Positions 13,062 through 38,995 of a DNA stretch of 56,577 bases are shown here, piece by piece. Position numbers and translations under genes: made by a program. Origin of the DNA: a virus (taxonomy: Duplodnaviria; Caudoviricetes); IMG/VR virus record IMGVR_UViG_3300027759_000111, positions 1-56,577 of that record; one strand, written 5' to 3'. The notes beneath the pieces were generated by a model. That model was not told the origin of the DNA. It made no database searches and saw only the letters and a program-made list of their open reading frames with translations. Numbering within the stretch: the first letter of the stretch is position 1; every line of letters starts with the position of its first letter.

Positions 13062-13062
13062 A

Positions 13063-14553
13063 TTATAAATTGATTAAATAATTGTTTAAGTTGGTAGCTG
13101 TCAAATAATTTTTTAATTGCATATTTTTTTTAAAATCATAGTTTTGTTTGAATCTTATCTCATCTAATTCTTCAAAATCAAATTGATTATGTATTAATAT
13201 TCTCTCTATAATTTTCTTATCAAAATATCCTAATCCTGCTAAGGTATAATTCCATAATGATTGATCTGCACAACCAGAATATATTTCAAAATCTGAATAT
13301 CTTGTTAACCTAGATTTTGCTAAATCAATTATGTTTAGTAATCTTTCAGATTTGTAACTATAATAATTTACATAATTCCAAAATGCACTATCTTTTCTAT
13401 TTCCTAAGTAAGTCATTTGTACAAAATCTTTTAAATCATTATTTAATTTAAAAATTTCTTTATTGTATTTTTCTATAGAAACCGGTATAAAAGTTTCTTT
13501 TACAGTAGGCATCAAACAGTTTGTAATTAATTTCTTTAAACTTGTAAGAAGTGTGTGTAAACTAGTAGCTTGTAACGGTTCCAAAAAAGATGAAGATAAC
13601 CCTAAAGAAATACAATTTGATACCCAAGTATCTTCATAAGCTCCCGAAGAAAAATTTATTTTTTTAATTACTTCAATATTAGGATCATTATAATATTCTT
13701 TTAGTTCCTCTAAAGCACCATTTTCGTTTGTAAAAACATTATTATAAACATAACCTCTTCCAATTTTATGCCTTGTAGGAATTTCAAAAACCCAACCATT
13801 TTTTAAAGCTGTTGAAATTGTACAAGAAAATCTATCATCCGAATTTTCTTTTGTTTTAAAAATTATAGCTTCATTAACAGGAAGACTTTCTTCAAAAGAC
13901 ACCCAATTAGAATTTAATTTTGATATTAACAACTTTTGAAAACCTGTGCAATCTATAAAAACGTCAGCTGTTACGATTTCGTTATTAGATAAAATTAATT
14001 TTTCAATTTTATTATTTTTAACTTCAATATTTTCAACAACCTCATCAAAAATTTTTATTTTAGTTTTTGATTTAAAATATTCTACAAATTTATAAGCATC
14101 AATATGATAAGATTTATAATAATCCCATTTTAATGTATTATTTTCAATGTAATATGGAACAACATTATTTTCAAAATAGTGGCCACTAATACCACTTTTA
14201 CTTAAATTTAAATCATTTAATAAATGATAAAATAAGCTTGCATCTAAATTTTTATTAGCTGTTGTTGAACCTTCTAAAGGACTGAAAAAAGAGGAATTGT
14301 CTCCTGACCAATTTTTAAATAATATTCCTATTTTAGGTAATGCCCAAGTTTTAACTAAAAAATCCATTTCATCTAATTCTAAACTAGGATCTAAAAACAA
14401 ATCACTTAATGTTCCTGTAACTCCTTCACCAACGCCTACAATAGGAAGTTTGCTAGAATCGATTATTGAAATATCTTGATACGGTTGTTTTTTGCTTAAC
14501 AAAAAAGCAGTTAACCAACCTGAAGTTCCACCACCAACAATAACTATTTTCAT
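13063..14553 (-). CDS. flavin-dependent (tryptophan halogenase family) halogenase
   Basis: GGGTSG FAD motif, VGVGEG, putative catalytic Lys in LPKIGILF, FIDCTGF, GWVFEIP, FLEPLQATSLH. Confidence 0.88.
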   Translation of the reverse strand: MKIVIVGGGTSGWLTAFLLSKKQPYQDISIIDSSKLPIVGVGEGVTGTLSDLFLDPSLELDEMDFLVKTWALPKIGILFKNWSGDNSSFFSPLEGSTTANKNLDASLFYHLLNDLNLSKSGISGHYFENNVVPYYIENNTLKWDYYKSYHIDAYKFVEYFKSKTKIKIFDEVVENIEVKNNKIEKLILSNNEIVTADVFIDCTGFQKLLISKLNSNWVSFEESLPVNEAIIFKTKENSDDRFSCTISTALKNGWVFEIPTRHKIGRGYVYNNVFTNENGALEELKEYYNDPNIEVIKKINFSSGAYEDTWVSNCISLGLSSSFLEPLQATSLHTLLTSLKKLITNCLMPTVKETFIPVSIEKYNKEIFKLNNDLKDFVQMTYLGNRKDSAFWNYVNYYSYKSERLLNIIDLAKSRLTRYSDFEIYSGCADQSLWNYTLAGLGYFDKKIIERILIHNQFDFEELDEIRFKQNYDFKKNMQLKNYLTATNLNNYLINL

Positions 14554-15095
14554 TTTTTCCTTATAAAAGTTTTAAAACAAACCATATCATCTCCATAATT
14601 TAAAAAAGTTCCGTGCCAAAGTGTACCAGGAAAAACTAACACATCATTTTCTAAAGTTTCAATTTCTTGTTTTTTATTATTTATTATAAAATAATAGTTT
14701 GGATTGTTTCTATTTTTTTTAATAAAATGTATAACAGTATATGGTAACTCAATATTTTTTTTTTCTTGTATATGTTTTTTCAAACTAACATCCATACCTT
14801 CTAAATTTTGATTATTAACCAAACAAACATTTTCTGTGTTTTTAAGGGTAACATCAATATAACCTTGAGTAAAAACAAAATCAAAATCATAATCTAATTT
14901 TATTTTAAAATTTTTAATTGCTTTACTATATAAATTTGTAAAAAATGTTTTTTTTAAATTTTCTTTTTCAGTATCAGTAAAAAAAGTGCAATTAATTAAA
15001 TTATTTTCATAGTAAGATTTTAAAACAATATCACTAATTTCTTTAGAAAAAAAATTAAATTTAAAAATTTTTATATTATCTATAGTTATAATCAT
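14550..15095 (-). CDS. hypothetical protein, possibly degenerate cupin/2OG oxygenase
   Basis: C-terminal ENDVLVFPGTLWHG resembles the second His motif of DSBH oxygenases; translationally coupled to neighbours. Confidence 0.5.
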   Translation of the reverse strand: MIITIDNIKIFKFNFFSKEISDIVLKSYYENNLINCTFFTDTEKENLKKTFFTNLYSKAIKNFKIKLDYDFDFVFTQGYIDVTLKNTENVCLVNNQNLEGMDVSLKKHIQEKKNIELPYTVIHFIKKNRNNPNYYFIINNKKQEIETLENDVLVFPGTLWHGTFLNYGDDMVCFKTFIRKK

Positions 15096-15096
15096 T

Positions 15097-15675
15097 TTAA
15101 TTGAAATTGAAAGCTGCTGTTATTCTAGGTGTTTCATTATTACATTTTTGAACCATATGTTTTATATTTGATCTAAAAATTACCAAAGTTTTAGGTTTAA
15201 AATTGTAACTGCAATTTAAAGAATTTGTTTCGTTATAGTTTTTTACATCCTTTAAAGGCAACATATCAGGTTCATAAGGATTTTCAAAATATAATTTTCC
15301 TGATTTTTCTGGATTGGTTACAAAATAAACAGCGCTAAAAATAGAATTACTATGTGTGTGCCATTCTTGATAGTCGCCCTTATTATATACATTTATCCAT
15401 CCATCATTACAACTATAATCACCTTCAGACTTTAATTCTTTAGCAAATAAATTAACATTTTCATTTACTTTTTCAATTAAAAAATTAAAATTTTTATCGT
15501 TTTTTAAATTATAAGAACCTAAAGTATTATATACATCTGATATCCAATTTTTACCACCTTTTTCATTACTATCTTTAACACTCAAAAATAAGTTTTTAAT
15601 TTTTTCATTTTCTTCATCCGAAAAAACATCTTCTTTAATATATAAAACAGTGGGAAACCAATAATGTAAAATCAT
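15097..15675 (-). CDS. putative Fe(II)/2OG oxygenase (TIGR02466-like)
   Basis: WFPT, WINVY, EWHTHSNSIFSAVYF, VIFRSNIKHMV, RITAAFN. Confidence 0.85.
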   Translation of the reverse strand: MILHYWFPTVLYIKEDVFSDEENEKIKNLFLSVKDSNEKGGKNWISDVYNTLGSYNLKNDKNFNFLIEKVNENVNLFAKELKSEGDYSCNDGWINVYNKGDYQEWHTHSNSIFSAVYFVTNPEKSGKLYFENPYEPDMLPLKDVKNYNETNSLNCSYNFKPKTLVIFRSNIKHMVQKCNNETPRITAAFNFN

Positions 15676-15680
15676 AAGAC

Positions 15681-15688
15681 TATTTATA
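15681..15688 (-). promoter_or_regulatory. T4-type late promoter TATAAATA
   Basis: Exact motif 5 nt upstream of the ATG at 15675. Confidence 0.7.
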
Positions 15689-15739
15689 AGCTTTTTAGGA
15701 CGTATATATATACCATAGATTATATTAAAAAAAGGAATT

Positions 15740-16324
15740 ATGGAATATCATTGGTGGTTAAGTGAAACTATTTTAGAACCTTATGTAATAGGTGAAAAAG
15801 TGTTTAATGATGAAGAAATACAAAAAATAATTAAAATAGGAAAAAATGAAAAATTTAGTACTTTTGAAGAACCTTTAATAAACGGTAAAGAAAAAGACAT
15901 ATCAACCAGAAATTGTTTTTTATCTTTTTTAAGATCAGACATAGATGACAATAAATGGATTTTTAGAAGAATAACGGATTATATAGTTAATATCAATGAA
16001 CAATTTTATAATTATAATATAGAATATATTGAAAATTTACAATTTACAGAATATAAAAGTCCAGGACATTTTTACGGAAAACACGTAGACTTACAATATA
16101 AAAGTTCTAAAACTAGAAAAATAAGTTTCTCAATTCAACTTTCAGACGATAACGAATATGAAGGAGGAGATTTAATTTTGAATACAGGTAAAGAAATAAA
16201 AGCGAAAAGAAATAAAGGTTTTATTAATATTTTTCCTAGTTATGTATTACACGAAGTAACGCCAGTAACTAAAGGTATGAGATATAGCTTAGTAGGTTGG
16301 ATTTTAGGCCCTAGTTTTAAATAA
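15740..16324 (+). CDS. PKHD-type Fe(II)/2OG hydroxylase
   Basis: LQFTEY, YGKHVD, RKISFSIQLS, YEGGDL, IFPSYVLHEVTPVTKGMRYSLVGW; AAGGA SD. Confidence 0.9.
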   Translation: MEYHWWLSETILEPYVIGEKVFNDEEIQKIIKIGKNEKFSTFEEPLINGKEKDISTRNCFLSFLRSDIDDNKWIFRRITDYIVNINEQFYNYNIEYIENLQFTEYKSPGHFYGKHVDLQYKSSKTRKISFSIQLSDDNEYEGGDLILNTGKEIKAKRNKGFINIFPSYVLHEVTPVTKGMRYSLVGWILGPSFK

Positions 16325-26781: not shown

Positions 26782-27503
26782 ATTTTATCCTCGTAATCTT
26801 TTATATTATTTTTAATATATTCTGTAAGTTTTTTAGTGAAATAATTTCTAAATTTGTAAACCACAAAGTAATATGGATACTGAAAAATATATTTTAGAAT
26901 ACCTAAAAAAGTAAAATTAGTTTCTGGTAATGACGCTATACGTATTTGCATTAAATAATATTCAGTATAATCTCTTAAAAACATAGCATTATAATGTTTT
27001 ACAAAATCTTCTTCAGTAATTTTACCTGATAGTTTAATAAATTCTTGCACAGATAATTTTTTTTCTTTTATTTCTTTATAATTATATGTAACATTGTGCC
27101 CATGCCAAGCTTGATTTTTTTTATCTGATATTCTAAAGTTTAATGGTAATTTAGATTTTAAAATATTTTTTTTAAAATTATTTAATTGTTCCATAGTATT
27201 AAAAGCAATAGTAACATATCTAAATTTTCTATCAGAATGTCCCTCACAACTAGAACAGGTTAAATAACCTTTATTAATTAATAAGATTACCAAATCAAAA
27301 ACTCCAGGATCAATATTTTCACCTATAAAAGGATTATATGGACTTACATGACTACTAACATATTCACCATCTTTGTCAATATATTCGTAAGGTCTTCCAT
27401 CTTTTGTTTTAAATTTGTTAGAATGTTTAAACAAAGCGTAATTTAATATTTCTTCATTATCATCAATTGCAACTTTTGTATTAGTTTTATATTCTTTGTT
27501 CAT
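26778..27503 (-). CDS. hypothetical protein with TxxSCxGH motif
   Basis: IDPG...LINKGYLTCSSCEGH; coupled within the operon. Confidence 0.6.
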   Translation of the reverse strand: MNKEYKTNTKVAIDDNEEILNYALFKHSNKFKTKDGRPYEYIDKDGEYVSSHVSPYNPFIGENIDPGVFDLVILLINKGYLTCSSCEGHSDRKFRYVTIAFNTMEQLNNFKKNILKSKLPLNFRISDKKNQAWHGHNVTYNYKEIKEKKLSVQEFIKLSGKITEEDFVKHYNAMFLRDYTEYYLMQIRIASLPETNFTFLGILKYIFQYPYYFVVYKFRNYFTKKLTEYIKNNIKDYEDKI

Positions 27504-28407
27504 AGTAATCTAGCAATCCTTTATATCCGTTGCAACTGTTTGTTAAATCTTTAACATAACGGTAATGCTCTGTTAAACAATGGCCATAATATTTACACTT
27601 TTTACATATATCTGAAACATTATTAATAGGTTCTTGTTCTGCCCATTTTATATATTCTTTAATTGAATTTAATTCTAAAAAATATTCTTTATCATCTTTA
27701 TTAAATTCTAAAACAGCAAAGTTACCATTTGGTGTTATATACACGTGGTTGTTTGAAAATGCATTATAATTTTTATTTAAACTTTCTATAATTTTGCCTT
27801 CATTTATAAAATCAAATTTTTTTGTAACTGAACTTTCAATCCATTTTTTTACAAACAATTCAAAATCTTTATGTGTGATAGGATGTGCATTAGCCTGATT
27901 TATTGAATATGGCTTAATCTCAACACTTTCTATACTAGAACACAAATTTAATTTGTTTATCATATCATCTACGTTCATCTCTATAACCTTTTGACTTGCA
28001 AGTATTAACACCGCTATTGGAACAGTGCTTTGAAACATATTATTATAAACCAAATCAGATTTTTCTCTAGCTTCAAAATCATAACTTATACTTAAATAAA
28101 AGTCATTTTCAAAAAATCCTTCATGCAACATAGAATAGTTTGTTATTATATTTATCTTGTCTTTATAGTATTTTCTTATAACATTTTTTATCCCATAGAA
28201 ATAATCTTTTTTTAAAGCACCTATTTCGCCGCCATATAAATCTACCCAATCAATCTTTCTTACTTCACTAATTTCTTTAAGTCTTTGATTGAGTATTGCT
28301 AGTGGTATTTTTTTTTGATCTCCTAATTGTTCAGGTGTAAGATAACAAAAATTGCATCTAAAATTACAAAAATAACTTGGATTTATAGAAACAGTTATAC
28401 TATTCAT
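27487..28407 (-). CDS. radical SAM protein with partial SPASM-like domain
   Basis: CNFRCNFC (CxxxCxxC), LYGGE, C-terminal CKKCKYYGHCLTEH...SC. Confidence 0.9.
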   Translation of the reverse strand: MNSITVSINPSYFCNFRCNFCYLTPEQLGDQKKIPLAILNQRLKEISEVRKIDWVDLYGGEIGALKKDYFYGIKNVIRKYYKDKINIITNYSMLHEGFFENDFYLSISYDFEAREKSDLVYNNMFQSTVPIAVLILASQKVIEMNVDDMINKLNLCSSIESVEIKPYSINQANAHPITHKDFELFVKKWIESSVTKKFDFINEGKIIESLNKNYNAFSNNHVYITPNGNFAVLEFNKDDKEYFLELNSIKEYIKWAEQEPINNVSDICKKCKYYGHCLTEHYRYVKDLTNSCNGYKGLLDYYEQRI

Positions 28408-28409
28408 TT

Positions 28410-29105
28410 TTATGCGTTATTATCTTCAAAAATCAAATCAACAGGCATAGATATTCTTAGTTTTCCAAAAAATAATTCTACACCATGATAAACAAAACTA
28501 GGAAACAATACTACATCTCCGGTTTTAGGTTCTAGTCTTTTGTCATCAAACATTTTTGAAAAGTTTGCATTAATTTGATACCCCCTATTTGCATTTCCTC
28601 TAGGATCTCTAACACTTAAAGCACCTCCTAAATTTTCATTTTCATTTAATAAATAAAATACAGCACTCAAATGAGAGCCCGAATGATTATGTTCAGGCAT
28701 AGCGTAACCTTCTTTAAATGTAACACCAGATCCATTCAACCAAGATTTTAAAAAATATTTTTCTTTTTTTAAATCTATATTTAGCTGTTCTTTTAAATAT
28801 TTTTCAAATACAGGAATAACTTCCTTTTCTTTAAATTCGTTAAAAAAACTATCATCTAATAAATTTTTTTCACTTCTTATTTTTAAGTCTTTATCAAAAG
28901 TATAACCATTTGTAGCAATCGCACCACTCTTATCAGTTGTTTCAGTTAGATAATTAGTTATAACATGATTTACAACTTTTTCTAATAAGACTTTATCTTG
29001 AATTTTTGTTATTAAAATTGGTGTTGGCCAACAATAATTATAACCTTCATCAAAACTATATTTTTTATTAGTTTGTTTGTTTATTGATAAATTTGAAAAT
29101 GTCAT
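28410..29105 (-). CDS. putative Fe(II)/2OG oxygenase (TIGR02466-like)
   Basis: WPTPI, SWLN, EHNHSGSHLSAVFY, DPRG, LFPSFVYHGV, RIS. Confidence 0.85.
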   Translation of the reverse strand: MTFSNLSINKQTNKKYSFDEGYNYCWPTPILITKIQDKVLLEKVVNHVITNYLTETTDKSGAIATNGYTFDKDLKIRSEKNLLDDSFFNEFKEKEVIPVFEKYLKEQLNIDLKKEKYFLKSWLNGSGVTFKEGYAMPEHNHSGSHLSAVFYLLNENENLGGALSVRDPRGNANRGYQINANFSKMFDDKRLEPKTGDVVLFPSFVYHGVELFFGKLRISMPVDLIFEDNNA

Positions 29106-29626
29106 ATATTAGTTAAATTTTTATTTACAAAATAATGAAAACTTGCAACCTTTCTAGGCATTTTAATTTTCAATGGTGTTACCATGTGTTCAAATTGTTC
29201 ACTTTGATTCATTATAATAATATCATGTTGTTTAGGATAATAAGAATTAATTAATTCTTTTGTTTTTGTATTTCTAAATTGAATTGCACCACCTATATCT
29301 TCATCCATCGTATCAAAATACATTAAAACACAAAGATTAGATACTATAATCATGTCATTATGCCATTCTAAAGTTGCTTTATCCATACCATTTACCAAAT
29401 CAATTTTTTCTGAAATTTTATAGTTGTTATCTATTTCTTTTACATATTTTTTTGCCAAATATGTTTGCGTTTCTACTAATTGATTTTTTAATTCTTGATC
29501 TTTTATTGCAACAGATAATCCTATGCAGCCTGGATCTGACCATTGTACATTATGTATATCTATATATTTAAATGCGTTACTGTCATTTAAATATATATGT
29601 CCTTTTGACAAAAAATTATCTATCAT
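29102..29626 (-). CDS. Fe(II)/2OG oxygenase
   Basis: WHND (HxD), LMYFD, GGAIQF, FEHMV, RKV. Confidence 0.8.
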   Translation of the reverse strand: MIDNFLSKGHIYLNDSNAFKYIDIHNVQWSDPGCIGLSVAIKDQELKNQLVETQTYLAKKYVKEIDNNYKISEKIDLVNGMDKATLEWHNDMIIVSNLCVLMYFDTMDEDIGGAIQFRNTKTKELINSYYPKQHDIIIMNQSEQFEHMVTPLKIKMPRKVASFHYFVNKNLTNI

Positions 29627-30713
29627 TTACACTTTCATTTATATAAGGTGTTACTTCTATATTTAGTCCGTTAGATTTAAGTATATCTGGAGCAATTGAT
29701 TTCATTAACTTACAGTGCTCCTCTACCATATTATGCTGTTTTAAATCTTTAATTGTTTTTCTGCAACCATTACATATCTCAAACATAGGACAAGTAAAAC
29801 AGGCCTTCTTCATACTAATAAAATTAATATCATCTTGTAATGGTGTAAAAAACTCACCTTTCATTTCTTTATCAAAATTTATTGATTTATCTTTATCATC
29901 ACCAAACGAACCACAAGAATAATAATCTCCACTAGGATTTAATGCACGAATACCACTATCACATTTACGATTTTGAGGACATGATGTTCTTCCACCAATT
30001 AATCTTTGTATCATTTGCCTTGTATTAAATTCCCAAGGCGTAAGTCCACGTTTCCATATTTCTACATAGATTTGGTATATCTTACTTAGTAAGTAGGGCT
30101 TACCTTGTTCTCCACTTGCCATTGCATAGTTTAATTTACACTCAACACCTATTTTACTGTTACGTGAAAAATTATGTAATGTTCCATCTGGTTTAACATC
30201 TTCACTCATTCGTTTGGCTAACTCTACGTTTTTAATTGCATCTTTTTCATTTTCAGGTACAATAACAGATATAAAATCTGGTCTATAACCACAGTGTTCT
30301 AACATAGTATCAGAACACTTCCAAAAATCTTCTTCTGTAAATTCTGAATAATCTCCTTTAAGACGGCCACCACCATATTGAAAAGAAGTTGTTACACCTA
30401 TTCTTTCGTTATTAAATAAAGACTTCCATTTTTTGGGTTTTATATAAAAAGGCCATAAATTAGTAGTTAGAGCTATAGAAGTTTTATAATCGTGTTCGTC
30501 TAACCAGTTTATAATTTTCCAATAATAATCTGGTTTCATCATTAAAGGGTCGCCACCATTGACTATAATGGTTTTTGTATTAGGAAATCTTTTTAAAAAT
30601 GTAAATATTTGTTCGTGTGATAATACATCTTTTTTATGTTCTGCTATTTTAGTACTCGAACAAAAACTACATTTAAAATTACATAGTTCCGTTGGTTTTA
30701 TAATTAAATCCAT
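29616..30713 (-). CDS. radical SAM/SPASM protein
   Basis: KPTELCNFKCSFC, NGGDPL, CPQNRKC...GDYYSC, CFTCPMFEICNGC. Confidence 0.92.
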   Translation of the reverse strand: MDLIIKPTELCNFKCSFCSSTKIAEHKKDVLSHEQIFTFLKRFPNTKTIIVNGGDPLMMKPDYYWKIINWLDEHDYKTSIALTTNLWPFYIKPKKWKSLFNNERIGVTTSFQYGGGRLKGDYSEFTEEDFWKCSDTMLEHCGYRPDFISVIVPENEKDAIKNVELAKRMSEDVKPDGTLHNFSRNSKIGVECKLNYAMASGEQGKPYLLSKIYQIYVEIWKRGLTPWEFNTRQMIQRLIGGRTSCPQNRKCDSGIRALNPSGDYYSCGSFGDDKDKSINFDKEMKGEFFTPLQDDINFISMKKACFTCPMFEICNGCRKTIKDLKQHNMVEEHCKLMKSIAPDILKSNGLNIEVTPYINESVNDR

Positions 30714-31282
30714 TTCAATTCTTTATCAGTAGGAGCTTCAACATTCCACCCAAAAACCAATGTTGTTCTTGGTTTTTCGCCAAAATAAGGTTTTACACGG
30801 TGAACAAGAAATCCTGGAAAAATAATCAATCTATTTTGTTTAGGTAACACATTTATTGTGTTAGATGGATATTCTGCAAAAGTTAAATTTTTATATATGG
30901 TTAATTCGCCACCTACCCAATCAACACCATTAAAAGAAGAGTCTATATAATAGATAGCCGTAATGTATGAACGTTCCACCATATCGTGATGAGGTTCATA
31001 TAAATGATTGTAGACCATTTTTTCATCATATTTTTTTAAACGGCCTTTTTGTAAATTACTAAAATTAAGAGAATTAAAATCTATATTATTTTCAGCGCAA
31101 TAATTTATAAATGTAACATTTACTATTTCATATAATTTTTGTTGACTTTCTGAAAAACTATCTTGACCGGCAATAGTTTTATCTATTAAAGATTCTTTTT
31201 TTAACCTTTCTATTAAGTTTACATCATCTATATAATCATCATAAACACAAACAGGTTCGTTTATAAATTTTAATATTTTCAT
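30704..31282 (-). CDS. Fe(II)/2OG oxygenase
   Basis: PHHD, AIYY, WVGGEL, NRLIIFPGFLVHRV, RTT. Confidence 0.85.
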   Translation of the reverse strand: MKILKFINEPVCVYDDYIDDVNLIERLKKESLIDKTIAGQDSFSESQQKLYEIVNVTFINYCAENNIDFNSLNFSNLQKGRLKKYDEKMVYNHLYEPHHDMVERSYITAIYYIDSSFNGVDWVGGELTIYKNLTFAEYPSNTINVLPKQNRLIIFPGFLVHRVKPYFGEKPRTTLVFGWNVEAPTDKELKWI

Positions 31283-31293
31283 TTTTAAATAAA

Positions 31294-31938
31294 TTATTCT
31301 ATTTTATATCTAAACCCAAACGTATACCTAACTTTATCCCCAGCAGAAATTACTTGATGATGAATTAAAGGATTTGAGTTATTAATAACAACAAACGTTG
31401 AATCTATTGGATAGTGTGTATGCGTTAATTTAACAGAACCATCTTCTTGTTCTACACCAATATTTAATTGACCACCCCAATTTTCATTCCATTCTTTATG
31501 GTCGTTTATATAAACTAACACAAAAAAATCTGACGTATCGCTAACATCATTGTGCATCTTAATATCTAATTGTTTATCCCACAATCCCATACTCAAAGGT
31601 TTGATATTTCTAATACTTCTATATTTTATATGCTGTATTTTAACCAAAGAATCTTTTAGTGTATCAAAAAATTTCATATCAATAATAGAGTTAGCTAAAT
31701 TTTTAACTTTTGTTGGAGACTTACCATAACTCATTTTACATCTTAAAAGCTCTTCATAAAATTCTTCATTTTTTTCAATTTCAGGAGTTACTGCCCAATT
31801 TGCAAATCTTGGTTTATCGCCGTACCAATCTGTATTGATAATAATATCATTTGCTTCTTTTCGTATTTCTTGGGGTAAAATTCCAACATTATATCCTTCA
31901 GTGTAGAATTTAAATTTATTAAACTTCAAATCAATCAT
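31294..31938 (-). CDS. Fe(II)/2OG oxygenase
   Basis: MHND, LVYIN, WNENWGGQL, HHQV, RYTF. Confidence 0.82.
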   Translation of the reverse strand: MIDLKFNKFKFYTEGYNVGILPQEIRKEANDIIINTDWYGDKPRFANWAVTPEIEKNEEFYEELLRCKMSYGKSPTKVKNLANSIIDMKFFDTLKDSLVKIQHIKYRSIRNIKPLSMGLWDKQLDIKMHNDVSDTSDFFVLVYINDHKEWNENWGGQLNIGVEQEDGSVKLTHTHYPIDSTFVVINNSNPLIHHQVISAGDKVRYTFGFRYKIE

Positions 31939-31947
31939 ATTGCTAAA

Positions 31948-31955
31948 TATTTATA
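31948..31955 (-). promoter_or_regulatory. internal T4-type late promoter TATAAATA
   Basis: Exact motif in the 42-nt gap, the largest in the radical SAM operon. Confidence 0.65.
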
Positions 31956-31980
31956 TAGACCTTAAAACACAATTTTAAAT

Positions 31981-32556
31981 TTAACTTAACCTTCTTATCC
32001 AATAATTACCTTTTCTTTTAAAGTTAAATTGTTGCATCAACTCTCTATGATATGGTTCATGTTGTATTTTTTTTTGATTCATAGCTAAATGCAGATATTC
32101 AAAATAAGAACCGGCTGGAACTATTATTTTTTTATCACCAAACATATAAATTATATCCGACCACATTTTTCTTAACAGATTTCTAACTTCTTTAATAGGT
32201 TTGATTTTTAAAACTCCAGAATATTTAATGCCCCCTATTATAATCTCATCATTATAAATGTGTATCATTGCAATACCTTTTTCTAATTTCCAATTTTCTT
32301 TACAAGTTATCCATTGTTCTTCATTTTTATTTTTCAATGTTTGTTCATAGATGTCTGGATCAGTTTCTTTAGTTCCCCACCAAATAAACATATGTGCTTG
32401 TCTAGGACTAATTCTTGGTATAAAAGGATGTTTTAATGGTAACGTATCTAATACTACATCAACATTTTTAGGTAAATTTATGTTAACGAGCGATGTATCC
32501 TCTTGATACTCGTACATCTTCGATATATCTGTGCGTAAGTTTATAGACACACTCAT
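31981..32556 (-). CDS. hypothetical protein
   Basis: 191 aa ORF overlapping the end of the upstream radical SAM gene; true start may be the internal MYEY. Confidence 0.65.
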   Translation of the reverse strand: MSVSINLRTDISKMYEYQEDTSLVNINLPKNVDVVLDTLPLKHPFIPRISPRQAHMFIWWGTKETDPDIYEQTLKNKNEEQWITCKENWKLEKGIAMIHIYNDEIIIGGIKYSGVLKIKPIKEVRNLLRKMWSDIIYMFGDKKIIVPAGSYFEYLHLAMNQKKIQHEPYHRELMQQFNFKRKGNYWIRRLS

Positions 32557-33529
32557 TTAACTCCTCTCTATACTTATAATCATGATTCATAAAACAACCT
32601 AAGGTACATCTTTCTAAAAACTCACAAGAAACACAATTGTATTTTTCTAAAAATTTATTTTCTATTATAGAGTTATCTCTAGGCTTAATTGGTGATTTAT
32701 ACATACTTAAAGATTTCGTGTCTTGCACTAAATTACCGCATAAACATAAAGTTCCATCTGCTAAAACTAACTTACTTACTCTACAAGAAGAATAATTTTT
32801 TTTGTTAAAAATCCAATCTTTAATTGGGTGAACGTTAGGATATTTGTCAACACAATACTTAAAAAATTTTAAAAGCAATTCATCACTTGGCATATTAAAT
32901 TTTGCGTGTTCATCAGGCATATAATAATCAAAATAAATATATTTGCCATTATTATATAAGTAATCAAAATATTCATCGCCTTCTTTTAAATAATATTCTA
33001 TATTAGGTTTTGTAAGTAAACAAGAAAAACAAGTAACTCTATTACCAAAATAATCTACATTTTTTTTAAAAATTTCAAATTGTTTAGGATTAAAACGACC
33101 TCTAGGATCGTATGATGTTGTTATTCTAGCTGATATATTGTTGTCTTTAGAATACTTTAATAAATCTTCTATTAAATCAAGTTTATCTGTTACTAGATTT
33201 GTAACCCAATTTAAAGAACAAGTTTTTTTATATTTTTCTGATATTTTTTGTATACCTATCGACAGCTGTTTATATGCTTCGTTTAATTCTTTAGTGTAAA
33301 TAGTGGGAGCAAAAACTTCACCTCCCATTAAATTTAAAGTAACTTTATTTTTATTTTCTTTACTTATAAATTTTTCAATAGGTTCCAGTTTATTTAAAAC
33401 CGTGTCTAAACCTATTTTATCTTGGTGATTTTGCCAACAAAAAGAACAACTTAAATTACAAAATTCAAATAAATGTATAGTATATTCCTGCTCAGGATCT
33501 CTTTTAGGATCAATTAAAAATTCACGCAT
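32483..33529 (-). CDS. radical SAM/SPASM protein
   Basis: CNLSCSFC, MGGE, SC...DGTLCLC, CVSCEFLERCTLGC (Cx2Cx5Cx3C). Confidence 0.92.
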   Translation of the reverse strand: MREFLIDPKRDPEQEYTIHLFEFCNLSCSFCWQNHQDKIGLDTVLNKLEPIEKFISKENKNKVTLNLMGGEVFAPTIYTKELNEAYKQLSIGIQKISEKYKKTCSLNWVTNLVTDKLDLIEDLLKYSKDNNISARITTSYDPRGRFNPKQFEIFKKNVDYFGNRVTCFSCLLTKPNIEYYLKEGDEYFDYLYNNGKYIYFDYYMPDEHAKFNMPSDELLLKFFKYCVDKYPNVHPIKDWIFNKKNYSSCRVSKLVLADGTLCLCGNLVQDTKSLSMYKSPIKPRDNSIIENKFLEKYNCVSCEFLERCTLGCFMNHDYKYREELNECVYKLTHRYIEDVRVSRGYIAR

Positions 33530-33538
33530 ATCAAAATA

Positions 33539-34657
33539 TTATAATAATTTAAATTTGGATAATTCTTCTATATTATTTTCTTTCTTTAAATTTATAATAT
33601 AATGCACAAAAACGTAATTTGTGTTTTTAAAATCAAATTTAGGAATCAGTAGGGTATCACTAGGATGTTCTATTAATAAATTTAACAAAGAATCTAATTC
33701 AGACTTTGTAATTTCATCCTTTGTAACATATTCTAAAAAATCAAAGATGGCAAAATTGTTTTGGTCAATATCTATACCTTCAATATCTTTATATATTTTT
33801 AAAAATAAGTTTCTTAAACCATCAATTTGTTCTTGCGTTAAATTTTTAAAATTCAAATAATTACGATTATCTGATTTTAATTTATCCGTTGGCCATATTG
33901 TTTCATCTGAATAATATTTTAAAGATTCAATATTTTTAATAGGATTAATATTGTAAAAATCTATATTAGATTCTGTATAATTTAAAACTGATTGAAAATT
34001 TCTATTAAGTAAATTAAATAACACCATTTCTTTACTATCTCTTAATATTTCTAAAAACCATCTTTTTAAAAAAACAAGTATTGTGAATTTTAGTGATTGT
34101 AAATTTTTTACGGAATTGCTAAAATAATCAGCCAATAAAAATTCAATTGAATAATTTAACTCAAATGATTTAATTTTTTCTATTTCGGTTTGGCTAATAA
34201 CAGTATTGTTAAATATAGTATCAACATTTTCAAATAGATAATCAGAACTCCAAAAAGCATTATCATTCTTAATTGTTATATCATCACCTTCAGAATTAAC
34301 AAAATTCATTCTTTCTTTGAATACAAATAATTTTATATAGTTTTTATAACTTTCTAAAGTTAAATTAGGTAATATTAATTTTAACCATTTAGTTAAAAAC
34401 TTGCAATAATTAGTTTTATCGCAATATATAATAGTTTTATTATTTGAAGATTTTGAATGATCGTATATTTTTTGAATTAAATCTGTAAAGCTAATATCAT
34501 CAATATTTTTTTCAAAATGTATTAACTCTCCTTTATTAATTTGTTTATATAAATCTAATAGAGGAACACCTTTAATTTCCGATATTACAACACGATCAAA
34601 ACTTGAATTTATAACATCATCAAATTCTAAATATGATTTATTAAATAAATGAAACAT
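33539..34657 (-). CDS. hypothetical protein in the radical SAM operon
   Basis: 372 aa, coupled; no clear motif. Confidence 0.7.
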   Translation of the reverse strand: MFHLFNKSYLEFDDVINSSFDRVVISEIKGVPLLDLYKQINKGELIHFEKNIDDISFTDLIQKIYDHSKSSNNKTIIYCDKTNYCKFLTKWLKLILPNLTLESYKNYIKLFVFKERMNFVNSEGDDITIKNDNAFWSSDYLFENVDTIFNNTVISQTEIEKIKSFELNYSIEFLLADYFSNSVKNLQSLKFTILVFLKRWFLEILRDSKEMVLFNLLNRNFQSVLNYTESNIDFYNINPIKNIESLKYYSDETIWPTDKLKSDNRNYLNFKNLTQEQIDGLRNLFLKIYKDIEGIDIDQNNFAIFDFLEYVTKDEITKSELDSLLNLLIEHPSDTLLIPKFDFKNTNYVFVHYIINLKKENNIEELSKFKLL

Positions 34658-35336
34658 TTTTTATAATTTCTTTGTCGTTATTTCTAGCATTTATATATTC
34701 TTTACCTTTTCCGTCTACTATATTCCAAGTTAATAAAAACATTGGGTTATTTTCGTTACTCCAATATGAAAATAAATTTTTACCTCTAAACATATAATCT
34801 TCAAAGTAACGTGTATAGAATTTAACTATATCATTATTTATGTTTTTAAAAAATAAGTAAAATCTTTCATGTTTTAATAAACTAACAAAATTTATGCCAT
34901 CTAGGCTATTAGTATCATCTTTTGGAAATGATTTTGCATAATCTTTAAATTCATCAGAATTTACACTGTAAAGATTAAAAATTGATAAACTTTCTAATTT
35001 TTCTCTCCACTTAGATATTATATCTTTGTTTTCATCTATAAAATTTTTATATTTATTTTCTTTAGATATATTTTTAAATTCAAAAAGTATATCAATAACA
35101 ATATTTTCTAGTGAACTTATATTAAGTAAACTAATACTATGTAAATATTCTTTTACTAATTCTAAATCTGGATTTTTTATATCTGTTGGCAAATCTAGGT
35201 TACTTAAATACGTTAAAAATTTTTTTCCTTTTAAACCACTACCTTGATAATCTATTGCATAAGATACTTCTTTATCTGTAAAATATTTTTTTAAATTTTC
35301 TATTGATATAGGTACTGTTGTTTCAATTATTTTCAT
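34641..35336 (-). CDS. hypothetical protein directly downstream of the CHxS-repeat gene
   Basis: 231 aa; TAATG-coupled; FLTYLSNLD, GINFVSLL and MFRGKNLFSYW blocks. Confidence 0.7.
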   Translation of the reverse strand: MKIIETTVPISIENLKKYFTDKEVSYAIDYQGSGLKGKKFLTYLSNLDLPTDIKNPDLELVKEYLHSISLLNISSLENIVIDILFEFKNISKENKYKNFIDENKDIISKWREKLESLSIFNLYSVNSDEFKDYAKSFPKDDTNSLDGINFVSLLKHERFYLFFKNINNDIVKFYTRYFEDYMFRGKNLFSYWSNENNPMFLLTWNIVDGKGKEYINARNNDKEIIKNVSFI

Positions 35337-35878
35337 TATCTTCTACCTCGTGAACTGTGGCAAGAACTATGACAGCTTGTGTGGCAAACATCTATTGTTG
35401 TAGTCACAGTATTACTTCTTAGAGTTGTATATTCTGTAGCCAAATTACCAAAATAAGTTTCTAAATTAGAAGATGATATAGTTTGTGTAGCATCTACACT
35501 TGCACTATTAATTGCACCTAATGTTTGTCTATTACTAGTGGCCATATGAGCAACGTTTGTTGCATCAAAAATAACTCCACTTCCTAAAAGATTTTTTATT
35601 GCTCTTTGTAATCTAATATTTGTATATAAAGCAGTTTCAGTTTCTAATACTGTTTTTATTGTACTAGCGGTAATAGCATTTCCTGCGCTACCTATTGTTG
35701 CACCTGTCGCTGTAACTGTTGCACCGGCCGTTGTACCAGCATATGTTGCATCTGGCATTTCTGCAAAAGGTTTACTGTCTGTACCGTAAACAATACCTGT
35801 GTTAGCAACGTCAGTTACTAGGTCTTTAAATCTATCCACTATATTTTGTGGTGTAACTGGATTAGTTAATGTTACCAT
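35336..35878 (-). CDS. Thr/Ala-rich virion-like protein with C-terminal (CHxS)3-RGRR motif; candidate radical SAM substrate
   Basis: Ends DVCHTSCHSSCHSSRGRR; all 3 Cys lie in this tail; coupled directly behind a radical SAM/SPASM gene. Confidence 0.7.
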   Translation of the reverse strand: MVTLTNPVTPQNIVDRFKDLVTDVANTGIVYGTDSKPFAEMPDATYAGTTAGATVTATGATIGSAGNAITASTIKTVLETETALYTNIRLQRAIKNLLGSGVIFDATNVAHMATSNRQTLGAINSASVDATQTISSSNLETYFGNLATEYTTLRSNTVTTTIDVCHTSCHSSCHSSRGRR

Positions 35879-36899
35879 ATTGTATATTTTTCTTTAACTC
35901 TTTCATTAAACTCTTTGGTGCGCCACATATATCTCCTTGCCAAGCAAGTTGGTGGCAATCACCTCCACAAAACTCAAAAACTTCACAAGAAAAACATATA
36001 GGGTTTCTTGCACGTTCACAAGCGATGTTTTCTATTCGCACAGGACTATTTATAACACTTTTAATATCGTCTTTTATGTGTCCAAATTGAAATTCTGGAG
36101 CTGAATTTGGACAACCTGATATAGTACCATCTGCATTTATTGTAAATATTTTTTGTTCACAATCTCTACAAAAAGTACCACCTTTTAAAAAACCTGTTTC
36201 AAATTTACTATATATTACTTCTAAAGTATCATTACCAAACCAATCTCTACAATTAAATTCTTCAGACTGGTGGTGCATTTTCAAAAACCACTTATCTTGT
36301 TCTATATTATCAGGAAATATTTCAGGATGTAATTTTGCATTTCCGTTACCTGTTAATCTTTCAAAGGACACTTCTTGTACACCCAATTGTTTTACCCATT
36401 TTAATAATTCAATGGGTTCCATAGCAATAGTATCTTTTGTTACACTGATAAATAATCGAATCGTTGCACCTTTAGACAACAAATCTTTTACATTTTTTTC
36501 CCACAAATTATATTGGCCAGCTGTTTCAAATCTAATTTTAGGATCCCAACTTGTTCCTATACGATTGTTTAATGTGTATTTTATAAAATCATAATGCTCT
36601 TGTTTTAATTTCAATACTAAATTTGTTGTAATACCAAATGACCTATTCTTCCATAAATCTTTACATTCATCATACAATTTTTGCATATGAGATACTGGTG
36701 CTAAAAATGGTTCCCCACCATGAAACTCAAAATGAATTGAATCATCTTTATCGTTAAAATAATTTCTAAATCTTTTTATAAAATCAATAGTTTTAAAAGG
36801 ATCAAAGTAAATCTTTTTACCATTTATACCACTTGTGAAACAATGTTTACAGTTAAGTTGACAAGTTTCTGTAGTTTTTATATAAAACATCCATCTCAT
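35862..36899 (-). CDS. radical SAM/SPASM maturase (start revised to 36899)
   Basis: KTTETCQLNCKHC, FHGGEP, CRDC...DGTISGC, CFSCEVFEFCGGDC; ATGA overlap with the upstream stop. Confidence 0.93.
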   Translation of the reverse strand: MRWMFYIKTTETCQLNCKHCFTSGINGKKIYFDPFKTIDFIKRFRNYFNDKDDSIHFEFHGGEPFLAPVSHMQKLYDECKDLWKNRSFGITTNLVLKLKQEHYDFIKYTLNNRIGTSWDPKIRFETAGQYNLWEKNVKDLLSKGATIRLFISVTKDTIAMEPIELLKWVKQLGVQEVSFERLTGNGNAKLHPEIFPDNIEQDKWFLKMHHQSEEFNCRDWFGNDTLEVIYSKFETGFLKGGTFCRDCEQKIFTINADGTISGCPNSAPEFQFGHIKDDIKSVINSPVRIENIACERARNPICFSCEVFEFCGGDCHQLAWQGDICGAPKSLMKELKKNIQYGNIN

Positions 36900-37348
36900 T
36901 GTGTATATCCTATACTTAAAGCCCAAGTAAATGGTAAACTATCAACTTTATGTTTTGCTCCTTTAGGTATTGATATAGATTGTCCTTCTTTTATTAAAAT
37001 AGGATAGTTTTCCGTATATATTTTTTTACTACCTTTTATAACACATAACAACACATCTATATCGTCTGTATGTTCAGGAAAAGAAAATCCACCAAATTGA
37101 TTGTAAAAAAGATGAACATTTTTTGTTTTAAAATTTAAATTATAATCTTTCAACAATTGAAGATGATAGTTATTATCTTCTAATCCTTCAATTTTTATGT
37201 GTGAAATAGTTTTATATGTTTTTATCCAATCACCGTAAGTCATTTGTTCTTTAACTCTATAGTCGTTACCTTTTTTATCTATATAGATTATTTGATTATT
37301 TTGGTATCTTGTGAAGGATATTAATTCATCATTTAAAGCATTAATCAT
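36896..37348 (-). CDS. JmjC/cupin-like oxygenase
   Basis: HLF...SFPEHTDDIDV...GSKK...IPKGAKHKV (HxD...H) resembles cupin_4/JmjC. Confidence 0.75.
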   Translation of the reverse strand: MINALNDELISFTRYQNNQIIYIDKKGNDYRVKEQMTYGDWIKTYKTISHIKIEGLEDNNYHLQLLKDYNLNFKTKNVHLFYNQFGGFSFPEHTDDIDVLLCVIKGSKKIYTENYPILIKEGQSISIPKGAKHKVDSLPFTWALSIGYTQ

Positions 37349-37372: not shown

Positions 37373-38773
37373 TTATAGTATAATTGCCTCAATAAGGCCG
37401 TTTTCATTATCTTCTAACGCTATTGCAAATACTTTATTAAATTCTATGCTAATCGTTGTTGCAAAACCTCCGTTGCCTGCAACTAATTCATCACCTTTTT
37501 TAATGGGTCCTACAACTTTTACTTTAACACGGCCTTTTAGTGCTATTGGTTGGCCTGTACCTTTTGCGTTCATTAAAAAAGCAGGTCTATCAGATATAAC
37601 ACCTATCGCTTTATTACCTACAAAACATTCAGTAACTTCTTTATTACCGCCTACCATAACAACTGTACCAATATCATAAATTTTATCTGTTTCATAGATT
37701 TCGGCTAAATCGGCATATTGTGCTTGTGTAGCTGTCGTTGAAAGAACATTAGTTGAAGGATTATAAGTTAAACTTGTGTCAGTTTTTAACGCCTGGTTAC
37801 CTGTTGCAGTACCAGCAAACGTTAAAAAGTTTGCAGTATTAGTTGTGTCATCAGCAGTCAATGTAACTGTAGAAGCAATAGATGAAGTTCCTGTTATAGT
37901 TGAAGCAACTAAAGTATTTACTGTTAATGTATCTCCTGATAAATTTAATTTTGCAGCTCTTATAGTTGTGTCTGCAATATCTTCATTTATAATTGTACCA
38001 TTGGCAATCATTGTACTTGTAACTGTGCCTGTATCTCCAGTTGTTATAATTGTACCTGTGATATTTGGTATGGTAATTGTTCTATCTGCTGTTGGATCAA
38101 CAACAACTAAAGTTGTTTCAAAAGCATCATTCGTTGAACCTTCAAATATAATTCCTACTGAGCCTGTTAAAAGCAAATCAGTACCTTGTATTGTGCTTGT
38201 TCCCGTAATTGTAGTGCCTGATACTGCTCCTGAAAAAGCTCCTGTTGTTCCTGAAATTCCTGTACCTGCTATAGTTCCTGCTGATATGATAGAAGAAGCA
38301 TTTATAACTCCAACTACAGTCAAAGGATCATTTATTGTAACTAAAGAAGTGTTTGTTGATCTAATAGTATTACCGCTAATTTCAATAGTACCTAATGTAT
38401 GTAAAGCACCTCCTGCAGTAATATTTCCAGATGTAGCTGTAAAATTACCAGGAATAGTTACGTTACTAGTCAATGCTAATGTTAAAGTATCGGTTGCACT
38501 TACAACTGCTGTAATTTGATTTGAAGTGCCTCTTACGTCTAAAATTTGACCTGCACCTATAGCTTGAATTGTTGAACTTGAATCTCTAATTGTCCAACCT
38601 GCAGCAGAAAAGGCAACGCCGGCTATTTCTACAACCGCACCCACAATAGAAGTGGATGAAAGACCAGCACCTGCAAGTAATGATGGATTACCAAAATCAG
38701 TTTGAGTTAAAGTGTTTAACTTAACTCGCATCTGTTCTAGTGTATCAGTGGTATTGATTACTGTAAATGCCAT
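37373..38773 (-). CDS. tail fibre protein with conserved C-terminal domain
   Basis: TDTLEQMRVKLN N-terminus, Thr/Gly-rich shaft, YADLAEIY...GTVV...PAFLMN...ALKGRVKVKV C-terminal domain. Confidence 0.75.
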   Translation of the reverse strand: MAFTVINTTDTLEQMRVKLNTLTQTDFGNPSLLAGAGLSSTSIVGAVVEIAGVAFSAAGWTIRDSSSTIQAIGAGQILDVRGTSNQITAVVSATDTLTLALTSNVTIPGNFTATSGNITAGGALHTLGTIEISGNTIRSTNTSLVTINDPLTVVGVINASSIISAGTIAGTGISGTTGAFSGAVSGTTITGTSTIQGTDLLLTGSVGIIFEGSTNDAFETTLVVVDPTADRTITIPNITGTIITTGDTGTVTSTMIANGTIINEDIADTTIRAAKLNLSGDTLTVNTLVASTITGTSSIASTVTLTADDTTNTANFLTFAGTATGNQALKTDTSLTYNPSTNVLSTTATQAQYADLAEIYETDKIYDIGTVVMVGGNKEVTECFVGNKAIGVISDRPAFLMNAKGTGQPIALKGRVKVKVVGPIKKGDELVAGNGGFATTISIEFNKVFAIALEDNENGLIEAIIL

Positions 38774-38776
38774 TGT

Positions 38777-38995
38777 TTATTTTTTAATTACCTCTTTTAA
38801 TAATTCTTTTATCTCAAACAACTCTTGTTTTAAAATATTTATCTCTTTTATTGTATTTCTTATCTGATCTCCTTGTTGTTCACGTGACTTAACTCTATTC
38901 ATATATATTTGATATTCATTTTTGTTTGTATTTACAATAGCGTTTGACCTAATATCTCTTTCAAGTGAACTATGGCCTTCAACTTTAATTTTCAT
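38777..38995 (-). CDS. conserved small T4-like protein
   Basis: KVEGHSSLERD..SNAIVN followed by a coiled coil; directly follows the VrlC-like gene. Confidence 0.7.
   Translation of the reverse strand: MKIKVEGHSSLERDIRSNAIVNTNKNEYQIYMNRVKSREQQGDQIRNTIKEINILKQELFEIKELLKEVIKK

Follow-up and report, generated by a model that had tools for sequence, protein, structure and literature searches.

A gene for a Cys-His-tailed protein next to a radical SAM enzyme

We analyzed a 56,577-nucleotide stretch of DNA from a virus (Duplodnaviria; Caudoviricetes), corresponding to positions 1 to 56,577 of IMG/VR record IMGVR_UViG_3300027759_000111 and hereafter referred to as the window. The analysis was focused on a gene on the minus strand (35336..35878), which begins with ATG, ends with TAA and encodes a protein of 180 residues. 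The protein consists of a predicted alpha/beta domain (residues 1–164) followed by a 16-residue tail of the form (C-H-x-x)x3-R-G-R-R at the extreme C-terminus (35339..35386, minus strand), which is the proposed site of modification; we refer to it as the CH-tail protein. Its last residues are C-H-T-S-C-H-S-S-C-H-S-S-R-G-R-R followed directly by TAA, and the end is given as TIDVCHTSCHSSCHSSRGRR. The 12-residue repeat occupies positions 35351–35386, and RGRR together with the stop codon positions 35336–35350. A preliminary description, made from the sequence of the window, had placed all three Cys and three of the four His in the repeat, which agrees with the residue positions: Cys was found only at residues 165, 169 and 173, and His at residues 111, 166, 170 and 174. 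The codons of the three units differ, as that description had also stated (TGC CAC ACA AGC, TGT CAT AGT TCT and TGC CAC AGT TCA).

The start of the CH-tail gene overlaps by 17 nucleotides the stop of a gene for a radical S-adenosylmethionine (rSAM) enzyme with a SPASM domain, here called rSAM1 (354 residues, 35862..36926, minus strand), and its TAA overlaps the ATG of the next gene. The reading frame of rSAM1 opens with TTG at 36926, with a probable ATG at 36899, and its product is the proposed first maturase of the tail. The combined share of Thr, Ala, Gly and Ser is 45% in the CH-tail protein, 46% in the adjacent fibre protein and 15–20% in four tabulated neighbours that are enzymes or have no assigned function. 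The strict Cys-His tail was found once among the real open reading frames (ORFs) of the window.

The tail is nearly constant in otherwise divergent proteins

At E<=0.01, a word-indexed homology search with the CH-tail protein gave 342 proteins, 120 of them listed. The strict tail was located at the very C-terminus in 115 of the 120 listed homologues, all of which were recruited via the N-terminal domain, and the Cys, the His and the three Arg were invariant. Of the five others, one is a read-through, two are truncated and two have Pro or Gln in place of the first His. The earlier proposal had been made to depend on conservation of the tail among homologues, and this expectation was borne out. 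The family found in an exhaustive profile search comprised 636 cluster representatives at E<=1e-3; with the stricter thresholds of 1e-10 and 1e-30, 283 and 91 remained, respectively. We also carried out the pattern search that had been suggested, using the back-translated tail and stop codon, and obtained at least 121 IMG/VR stretches, as compared to approximately 0.02 expected by chance according to our own estimate. By this measure, the tail is far beyond chance.

The tail-bearing proteins range from 126 to 402 residues, and their N-terminal parts diverge strongly while the tail stays constant. We compared 217 distinct tails that had been pre-selected on Cys, His and Arg, so that the remaining positions alone are informative. 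The third position of the unit is free and often Gly. At the fourth position Ser predominates, with Asn, Ala or Gln in the remainder and Gly in none, and a hydrophobic residue precedes the first Cys. For the last unit, C-H-x-x-R, the third-position counts are Gly 101, Ser 66, Thr 21, Asn 12 and Ala 5, and Pro does not occur. At the DNA level, 195 distinct versions of the tail use both Cys codons and both His codons about equally, along with all six Arg codons and both Ser codon families. Synonymous codons thus vary freely, suggesting that selection acts on the protein, which is what had been supposed from the repeat of the window gene. The number of CH units also varies, with four units in loci L025, L035, L241 and L249 and approximately 12 units in locus L240. 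The latter is a partial ORF on a contig of Dysosmobacter segnis (Firmicutes; L240:3907-4266), in which the C-H-x-x units are arranged in blocks with short N-V-(P)-V spacers and an R-G-R-R end. Homologues of the cassette genes p231, p372, rSAM2 and rSAM3 (see below) adjoin this ORF, which resembles a multi-core substrate form.

The CH-tail protein matched no Pfam family and no NCBIfam family at E<=0.01, and the same result was obtained for its counterpart in Halobacteriovoraceae. The PHROG match was to phrog_35144, for which no function is assigned (E 1e-6, C-terminal 68 residues). Searches of a phage collection by tblastn with the CH-tail protein and P0118, and by megablast with the 10-kb region, gave no match, although jumbo-phage homologues are present in the collection. 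This probably reflects sequence divergence and the low-complexity filter rather than absence.

Gene order in phage loci

The neighbourhood of the tail gene was tabulated for 82 loci (L001–L082, not de-duplicated), leaving out another 41 loci with flanks of 300 nucleotides. Within 3 kb of the tail gene, an rSAM1 orthologue was found in 64 loci, any rSAM gene in 66, p231 in 62, a cupin in 53 and a homologue of the 466-residue fibre protein in 49, and in these 49 loci the fibre homologue lies upstream of the module. The common gene order is fibre, cupin, rSAM1, tail protein, p231, p372 and rSAM2, followed by further rSAMs and 2-oxoglutarate (2OG) oxygenases. The 16 loci with no rSAM gene nearby all have one layout, in which two tandem tail proteins of approximately 127 residues directly follow the fibre gene (L003, L028, L036, L041 and 12 further loci). 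We searched the whole contigs for five of these 16 loci, and all five hold an oxygenase-cupin-rSAM1-rSAM3-rSAM4 block approximately 10 kb away, with E-values for rSAM1 of 1e-104 to 1e-154. A contig of 151 kb (L081/L124/L129) has both layouts and two rSAM1 paralogues.

The reverse comparison started from rSAM1. Among the best 80 of 374 rSAM1-encoding loci, 70 had a strict-tail ORF downstream, 3 were cut by the contig end and 7 were of the split type. The preliminary description had also put itself at risk on homologues that occur widely without rSAM neighbours; the counts within 3 kb instead placed such neighbours beside the tail gene in four fifths of the loci (66 of 82). Thus, as judged from gene order, the genomic linkage of the tail gene to an rSAM/SPASM enzyme and a larger cassette is tight and near-universal.

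Structure and location of the CH-tail protein

In the AlphaFold2 model of the CH-tail protein, which was based on a 40-sequence alignment, the body forms a compact alpha/beta domain (mean predicted local distance difference test score, pLDDT, 87.8; predicted template modelling score 0.79) and the tail is a low-confidence extension after the last strand. A Foldseek search of this domain against the PDB gave no match at E<=0.001. Alignment with VIA-align against 48,161 chains gave a best Z of 4.2 (rmsd 5.0–5.7 over 127–141 residues), and the BFVD matches were to uncharacterised phage proteins only, including gp170 of phage Atu_ph07. The models thus suggest that the body is a globular domain without a known fold, which is common to the family and would not be fibrous. 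The body had been described as structural and fibre-like. Its composition is indeed close to that of the fibre protein, whereas the predicted compact domain does not look like that of a fibre. Three metagenomic proteins of 461 residues (P0125–P0127) carry a Gly_rich_2 domain (PF21722, 45.1 bits versus a cut-off of 24.3) ahead of the CH-tail domain, which suggests that the latter can be the C-terminal module of a larger, possibly adhesin-like protein.

A homologue has been detected in virions of phage Atu_ph07 by mass spectrometry, where gp170 is listed with 31.89 kDa, 8 unique peptides and 35.16% coverage (PMC6102473, Table S5). The tail protein that we translated from the Atu_ph07 locus weighs 31.89 kDa, which identifies it as gp170. 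According to the gel data given in that source, gp170 was spread over gel fragments 1–9, with its maximum in fragment 1 at the top of the lane, where proteins of 76–139 kDa are also found; the maxima of the 117-kDa sheath protein and the 43.5-kDa capsid protein are in fragments 2 and 6, respectively (PMC6102473). The fibre homologue gp176 and gp177 were also among the virion proteins, and gp165–169, gp171 and gp172, which comprise the enzymes and p231, are absent from the virion list given there (PMC6102473). On the data in this source, one member of the family is present in virions and, after boiling in sodium dodecyl sulfate, migrates far above the size of its monomer. This behaviour fits a covalent or very stable assembly, without proving one. 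Display on the virion of the window phage would be an extrapolation from this one distant homologue.

The enzyme cassette and its surroundings

Matches in PHROG to T4-type baseplate wedge proteins place the window among the T4-like myoviruses. Its baseplate J protein shares 67.6% identity with the counterpart in Pelagibacter phage Mosig and 55% with the one in HTVC008M, and the GC content is 24–37%. As judged from its genes, the window is a pelagimyophage-type genome, that is, of a marine, SAR11-type phage. The GC content drops to 23.5% at positions 12001–16000, as compared to 25–37% elsewhere in the window. In pelagimyophages, radical SAM cassettes are gained and lost within a ‘host recognition cluster’, and their function is not addressed in the available text of that study (PMC7029224).

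A part of the host-recognition region of the window (27487–37348, approximately 10 kb) encodes four rSAM paralogues, all of which match phrog_1802, one JmjC-like cupin, three 2OG-Fe(II) oxygenase-type proteins and four proteins without a known family. The genes of this part and the fibre gene are on the minus strand. Upstream of the CH-tail gene and the cassette lie genes for a 2035-residue structural protein, a 72-residue virion protein and the fibre protein. The 72-residue ORF (38777–38995), located between the other two, matches phrog_473 (‘virion structural protein’, E 6.8e-21). The fibre protein (466 residues, 37373..38773) has PHROG tail-fibre matches and a C-terminal domain of the intramolecular chaperone (IMC) type, for which the Peptidase_G2 IMC score of 23.7 bits is just under the cut-off of 25 bits. 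It is followed by the cupin (150 residues, 36896..37348), whose H-x-D...H iron triad is kept in the window and in phages RSL2 and Atu_ph07, and then by rSAM1.

The gene directly downstream of the CH-tail gene is p231 (34641..35336; phrog_20767), a conserved partner with no assigned function. Its AlphaFold2 model has a mean pLDDT of 83.3. Structure searches with p231 matched no known fold (best Z 4.8 over 53 residues), its sequence search against the PDB was empty, and the protein atlas gave a weak PcfJ-like lead and nothing else. Next comes p372 (33539..34657), which matched no family in the Pfam and PHROG scans and follows p231 in most loci. The rest of the cassette consists of rSAM2 (32483..33529), p191 with no assigned function (31981..32556), a 2OG-Fe(II) oxygenase-like protein of 214 residues that scores under the Pfam cut-off (31294..31938), a 2OG-Fe(II) oxygenase of 192 residues identified by Pfam and PHROG (30704..31282), rSAM3 with a weak SPASM match under the curated cut-off (29616..30713), p174 with no assigned function (29102..29626; phrog_19592), a 2OG-Fe(II) oxygenase of 231 residues (28410..29105; phrog_81) and the fourth paralogue, rSAM4 (27487..28407). 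Orthologues of rSAM3 and rSAM4 were found in split-layout (type-2) phage loci and in Bdellovibrionota.

Tail genes in jumbo phages, bacteria and plasmids

Orthologues of rSAM1 at 48–51% identity were present in 15 jumbo-phage records. In RSL2 and Atu_ph07, the cupin is located directly upstream of rSAM1, which is followed by the tail protein, the same order as in the window. The tail proteins of these two phages (187 and 297 residues, respectively) look unrelated in sequence and have the same tail at the end. In the available text of the papers on phages S13 and FLC6, the cupin, rSAM and 2OG genes appear as annotations only.

A scan of prokaryotes, with one genome per species, gave 47 tail stretches, of which 27 were in records of Bdellovibrionota lineages. 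Eight of the 47 were set aside as chance matches, being high in GC and having no matching ORF. A tail ORF was present in 37 of the stretches, and for 33 of these, rSAM genes were located within 4 kb. The Bdellovibrionota modules also contain p231. On a Bacteriovoracaceae contig of 2.45 Mb, the module is located amid housekeeping genes. Two matrixin-like (M10) peptidase genes directly adjoin this module (L259), and genes of the formylglycine-generating enzyme (FGE)-sulfatase family and for a glutaredoxin are found approximately 7 kb from it (L259:2373-3610). On a Halobacteriovoraceae chromosome (1.29-Mb contig), an ORF of 413 residues with a Peptidase_S74 chaperone domain lies at the edge of the module (L260:2765-4006). 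This domain is a signature of phage spikes and of Bdellovibrio MAT fibres, and radical SAM is not mentioned in the part of that source available (PMC10769870). We considered that the Bdellovibrionota copies might be prophages and rejected this explanation: both inspected loci are flanked by housekeeping genes, one having no phage gene and the other the S74-type fibre-like ORF.

More distant rSAM relatives, approximately 26% identical to rSAM1, were found in 134 plasmid records, 127 of them from Pseudomonas. In the one locus inspected, on pQBR103, four C-H-x-A units and R-G-W-R form the end of a 124-residue protein whose N-terminus resembles a signal peptide (L261:8326-8700). At least five rSAM genes surround its gene, and genes for type II secretion and pilin-like proteins precede it. 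The rSAM cluster near the type IV pilus genes of these Pseudomonas megaplasmids (the pQBR103 and pBT2436 family) is called conserved and of unknown function in the text available from two papers. The plasmid locus is like the window in having several rSAM genes around a small protein that ends in CH units. It differs in that the rSAMs are only distantly related, no homologue of the alpha/beta domain is present, the protein starts with a signal-peptide-like segment and the last four residues are others.

Sequence features of rSAM1

The CxxxCxxC motif of rSAM1 is located at residues 22–29, and C22, C26 and C29 are invariant in 14 orthologues. The Pfam Radical_SAM score of 26.2 bits is slightly under the cut-off of 29.5, and the match to phrog_1802 has an E-value of 2.4e-73. 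The SPASM domain scores 24.0 bits in Pfam (cut-off 21.5) and 34.4 bits for TIGR04085 (cut-off 27). In the C-terminal part C256, C272, C311, C314, C320, C324 and C334 are invariant, and C253 is nearly so. There is no N-terminal extension for a domain of the RRE type, the recognition element of ribosomally synthesized and post-translationally modified peptides (RiPPs). Sequence features thus assign rSAM1 to the rSAM/SPASM class, which modifies peptides and proteins.

As a single sequence, rSAM1 matched nothing in the PDB. The rSAM1 profile matched one solved structure over the full length, the anaerobic sulfatase-maturating enzyme (anSME) 4K36 (E 6.5e-10, residues 12–319 versus 12–333), and CteB, ChlB (9GM3) and 8VPO over the N-terminal core only. 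Prediction of a complex of rSAM1, the CH-tail protein, three 4Fe-4S clusters and SAM gave a score of 0.02 versus a mark of 0.32, which speaks neither for nor against binding.

Proposed function of the tail

On the comparative evidence, we consider it fairly probable that the co-encoded rSAM enzymes use the tail as substrate, yielding a fibre-module protein of the virion. The gene linkage suggests that the tail would be recognised and covalently modified in the cytoplasm of the infected cell by rSAM1, encoded immediately upstream, and that the other cassette enzymes (the JmjC-like cupin, the 2OG oxygenases and the remaining three rSAM paralogues) would probably process it further. The matured protein would then be built into the virion beside the fibre; presence in virions is shown for the Atu_ph07 homologue. 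The rebuilt Cys-His tail may serve as a cross-link, a lock or a metal-binding site that stabilises or arms the fibre tip. As the candidate chemistry we rank highest intra-tail His-to-Ser or Cys-based cross-links of the HxS or cyclophane/thioether type, followed by an anSME-like oxidation of the Cys in the last unit, C-H-x-S-R, and then by a cupin-catalysed hydroxylation of His or Arg. The same tail and enzyme kit would serve fibre- or pilus-like surface structures of the predatory Bdellovibrionota and the Pseudomonas megaplasmids. The varying number of CH units is reminiscent of repeat-type rSAM substrates and counts in favour of this proposal.

Several observations weigh against it. Every link between the tail and the enzymes is genomic, and we infer the modification itself. 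Cys and His are classic metal ligands, and a plain metal site alone would explain their conservation. The virion evidence comes from one distant homologue, and the migration of gp170 in the top slice could be aggregation. There is no phage or fibre gene within approximately 10 kb of the Bacteriovoracaceae module, which suggests that virion display is not the whole story; the display on virions that had been proposed earlier is thus in line with the Atu_ph07 data, as far as that source goes, and less so with this module. The closest cultured relatives, Mosig and HTVC008M, gave no match to rSAM1, suggesting that the kit is dispensable for this phage type. In NCBIfam, rSAM1 matches no curated maturase family above the cut-off (the best being PapB, 56.2 bits versus 340), and its reaction can therefore not be deduced from family membership. 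Finally, some of the cassette enzymes may have other substrates, since there are four rSAMs and four oxygenase-type proteins (one cupin and three 2OG) and a single 16-residue tail.

The number of enzymes, which looks excessive for one tail, is also an argument for an alternative that we regard as improbable, namely that the tail is an unmodified site for Zn, Fe, Cu or an Fe-S cluster formed by the three Cys-His pairs, perhaps on the axis of an oligomer, and that the cassette acts on the fibre or on a small molecule. The invariant residues are exactly the usual metal ligands, and the four-residue spacing would place all Cys together on one face of a strand, opposite all His. Metal ions are bound through His in some phage fibre proteins, which also speaks for such a site. 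However, an unmodified metal site leaves unexplained why the pairing of tail and rSAM1 persists in T4-like phages, jumbo phages, Bdellovibrionota and a megaplasmid although all else changes, why the tail gene is translationally coupled to rSAM1, and why Ser is preferred and Gly absent at the fourth position of the repeat.

A conserved C-terminal core beside an rSAM/SPASM gene is also the classic layout of a RiPP locus, in which case the folded N-terminal domain would be a long leader and the modified tail would be cleaved off as a small peptide, such as a metallophore or toxin. The many CH units and short spacers of the Dysosmobacter ORF resemble a multi-core precursor, and Bdellovibrionota modules can be without fibre genes and, in one case, adjoin the two M10-type peptidase genes. 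We nevertheless find such a precursor very unlikely: the virion data for Atu_ph07, at 35% coverage in the source table, indicate that the body is a stable product, this body is well folded throughout the family and fused to an adhesin-like Gly-rich domain in some phages, and the Pfam, PHROG and NCBIfam scans of the window cassette genes named no protease or exporter. We see equally little chance that the tail is a docking tag, which recruits the enzymes or an assembly partner while the chemistry takes place on the N-terminal domain or the fibre. The most conserved segment of a RiPP precursor is often the recognition element, and the variable N-terminal domains could be the real, diversifying substrates, but these domains are poor in Cys and His (0.34 and 1.4 on average) and have no other invariant reactive motif in common, and the variation in repeat number fits a repeated reaction site better.

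Returning to modification of the tail by the cassette, a more tentative and rather doubtful extension is that the four rSAM and four iron oxygenase-type proteins rebuild the tail into a new protein-derived cross-link or cofactor, which would be a common anchor or warhead at the tips of extracellular filaments that grip cells, including phage fibres, Bdellovibrionota fibres and megaplasmid pili. If so, it would be the first radical SAM modification of a virion structural protein, and an attachment chemistry common to viruses, predators and plasmids. The kit is large, with up to approximately 12 genes, and widespread, as seen from the number of cluster representatives of the substrate family. 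It is located in the host-recognition region of abundant marine phages and also occurs in predatory bacteria and in pilus operons of plasmids. Modification of the tail would, if real, define a new class of rSAM/SPASM substrates, probably together with a new reaction, and would offer a chemical handle on the way in which fibres are stabilised or armed; it would also provide a function for clusters that several papers list merely as ‘radical SAM, function unknown’. The proposal is directly testable by co-expression and mass spectrometry.

Comparison with known maturation systems

Small peptides (RiPPs) are known to be matured by rSAM enzymes, as are a few proteins of cells, such as sulfatases, quinohemoprotein amine dehydrogenase (QHNDH) and HxsA. 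In the literature searched, we found no paper that describes the CH tail or its modification, nor rSAM modification of a phage particle protein; the rSAM gene mentioned in PMC12801897 is a different one. The CH-tail system is thus covered by no curated family and by no paper that we found. The view of the preliminary description that the tail is an rSAM target on a virion protein gains from the comparative evidence, whereas the families that it had named as models (Hxs, triceptide and CXXX-repeat) do not include the cassette enzymes. The motif C-x3-C-H is similar to variant motifs of cytochromes c. Heme attachment was considered and set aside, as no heme-attachment gene turned up in the family scans of the cassette.

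The anSME enzymes, represented by 4K36, act on a protein and are similar to rSAM1 in the N-terminal rSAM motif, the lack of an RRE and the SPASM domain. The scores for the anSME family are nevertheless low, with 42.3 bits for rSAM1 and 71 bits for the Halobacteriovoraceae orthologue versus the TIGR03942 cut-off of 349.45. The sulfatase motif recognised by anSME is C/S-x-P/A-x-R. The last repeat, C-H-x-S-R, resembles it, yet its third position is never Pro and is Ala in 5 of the 217 tails, so that the tail departs from the motif. In anSME, an Asp beside an auxiliary-cluster Cys has been proposed as the catalytic base; in the alignment to 4K36, rSAM1 has Pro after this Cys (C-P-N) where anSME has Asp (C-D-F). 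Chemistry of the anSME type would also leave two further C-H units and the invariant His unexplained.

Enzymes of the rSAM/SPASM type also include the triceptide maturases (XyeB, GrrM/OscB, FxsB, YhhB and ChlB), which act on repeated motifs of three residues and join an aromatic residue to the beta-carbon of the residue at i+2. The H-x-S of the tail has the same i+2 spacing, and Gly never occurs at i+2; cross-linking at a beta-carbon requires a residue other than Gly at this position. The scores of rSAM1 for the triceptide families XyeB, GrrM, FxsB, YhhB and AmcB were 18–36 bits versus cut-offs of 310–450 (YhhB 35.9 versus 445, XyeB 27.9 versus 450 and FxsB 24.8 versus 370). Triceptide precursors are short peptides with no role for an invariant Cys, unlike the CH-tail protein. 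The tail also resembles CXXX repeats in having a Cys every four positions, and PapB, the best NCBIfam match of rSAM1, belongs to the ranthipeptide/SCIFF systems. QhpD forms thioether cross-links within a protein subunit, the gamma subunit of QHNDH. The cut-offs for these Cys-targeting rSAM/SPASM enzymes are 340 (PapB), 350 (the CXXX-repeat maturase TIGR04115, for which rSAM1 scores 38.2) and 453 (QhpD), and all scores of rSAM1 are far below. The ranthipeptide, CXXX and QhpD systems differ further in that the tail is without Asp or Glu acceptors, and an invariant His has no part in them.

In the HXS antiphage system, HxsA is matured by the rSAM enzymes HxsB and HxsC together with HxsD (Li et al., Nat Commun 2026, PMC13128918). 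According to the available text, the S-H-R-S-S motif of HxsA gains +8 Da, and the reaction needs the His and the flanking Ser (PMC13128918). The match of rSAM1 to HxsB was 41.3 bits (cut-off 370) and confined to the N-terminal 120 residues, that of rSAM3 to HxsC was 29.3 bits (cut-off 267.9), and the NCBIfam scan of 10 cassette proteins gave no HxsA-type or HxsD-type match. HxsA, as described in that text, contains H-x-S triplets that follow one another directly and include no Cys; it also has a peptidoglycan-binding domain, is processed at the N-terminus and acts in the defence of bacteria against phages. In contrast, the CH-tail protein has C-H-x-S units with a period of 4 instead of 3, an invariant Cys and an extreme C-terminal R-G-R-R, and it is carried by a phage fibre module. 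The two systems are alike, on the same source, in that the substrate is a whole protein, more than one rSAM enzyme is present, a His-x-Ser-containing repeat stands in a basic context and the product acts outside the cytoplasm. By analogy, the HXS system, in which rSAM enzymes mature a protein on an S-H-x-S-S motif, is thus the closest functional precedent for the CH-tail protein and its cassette.

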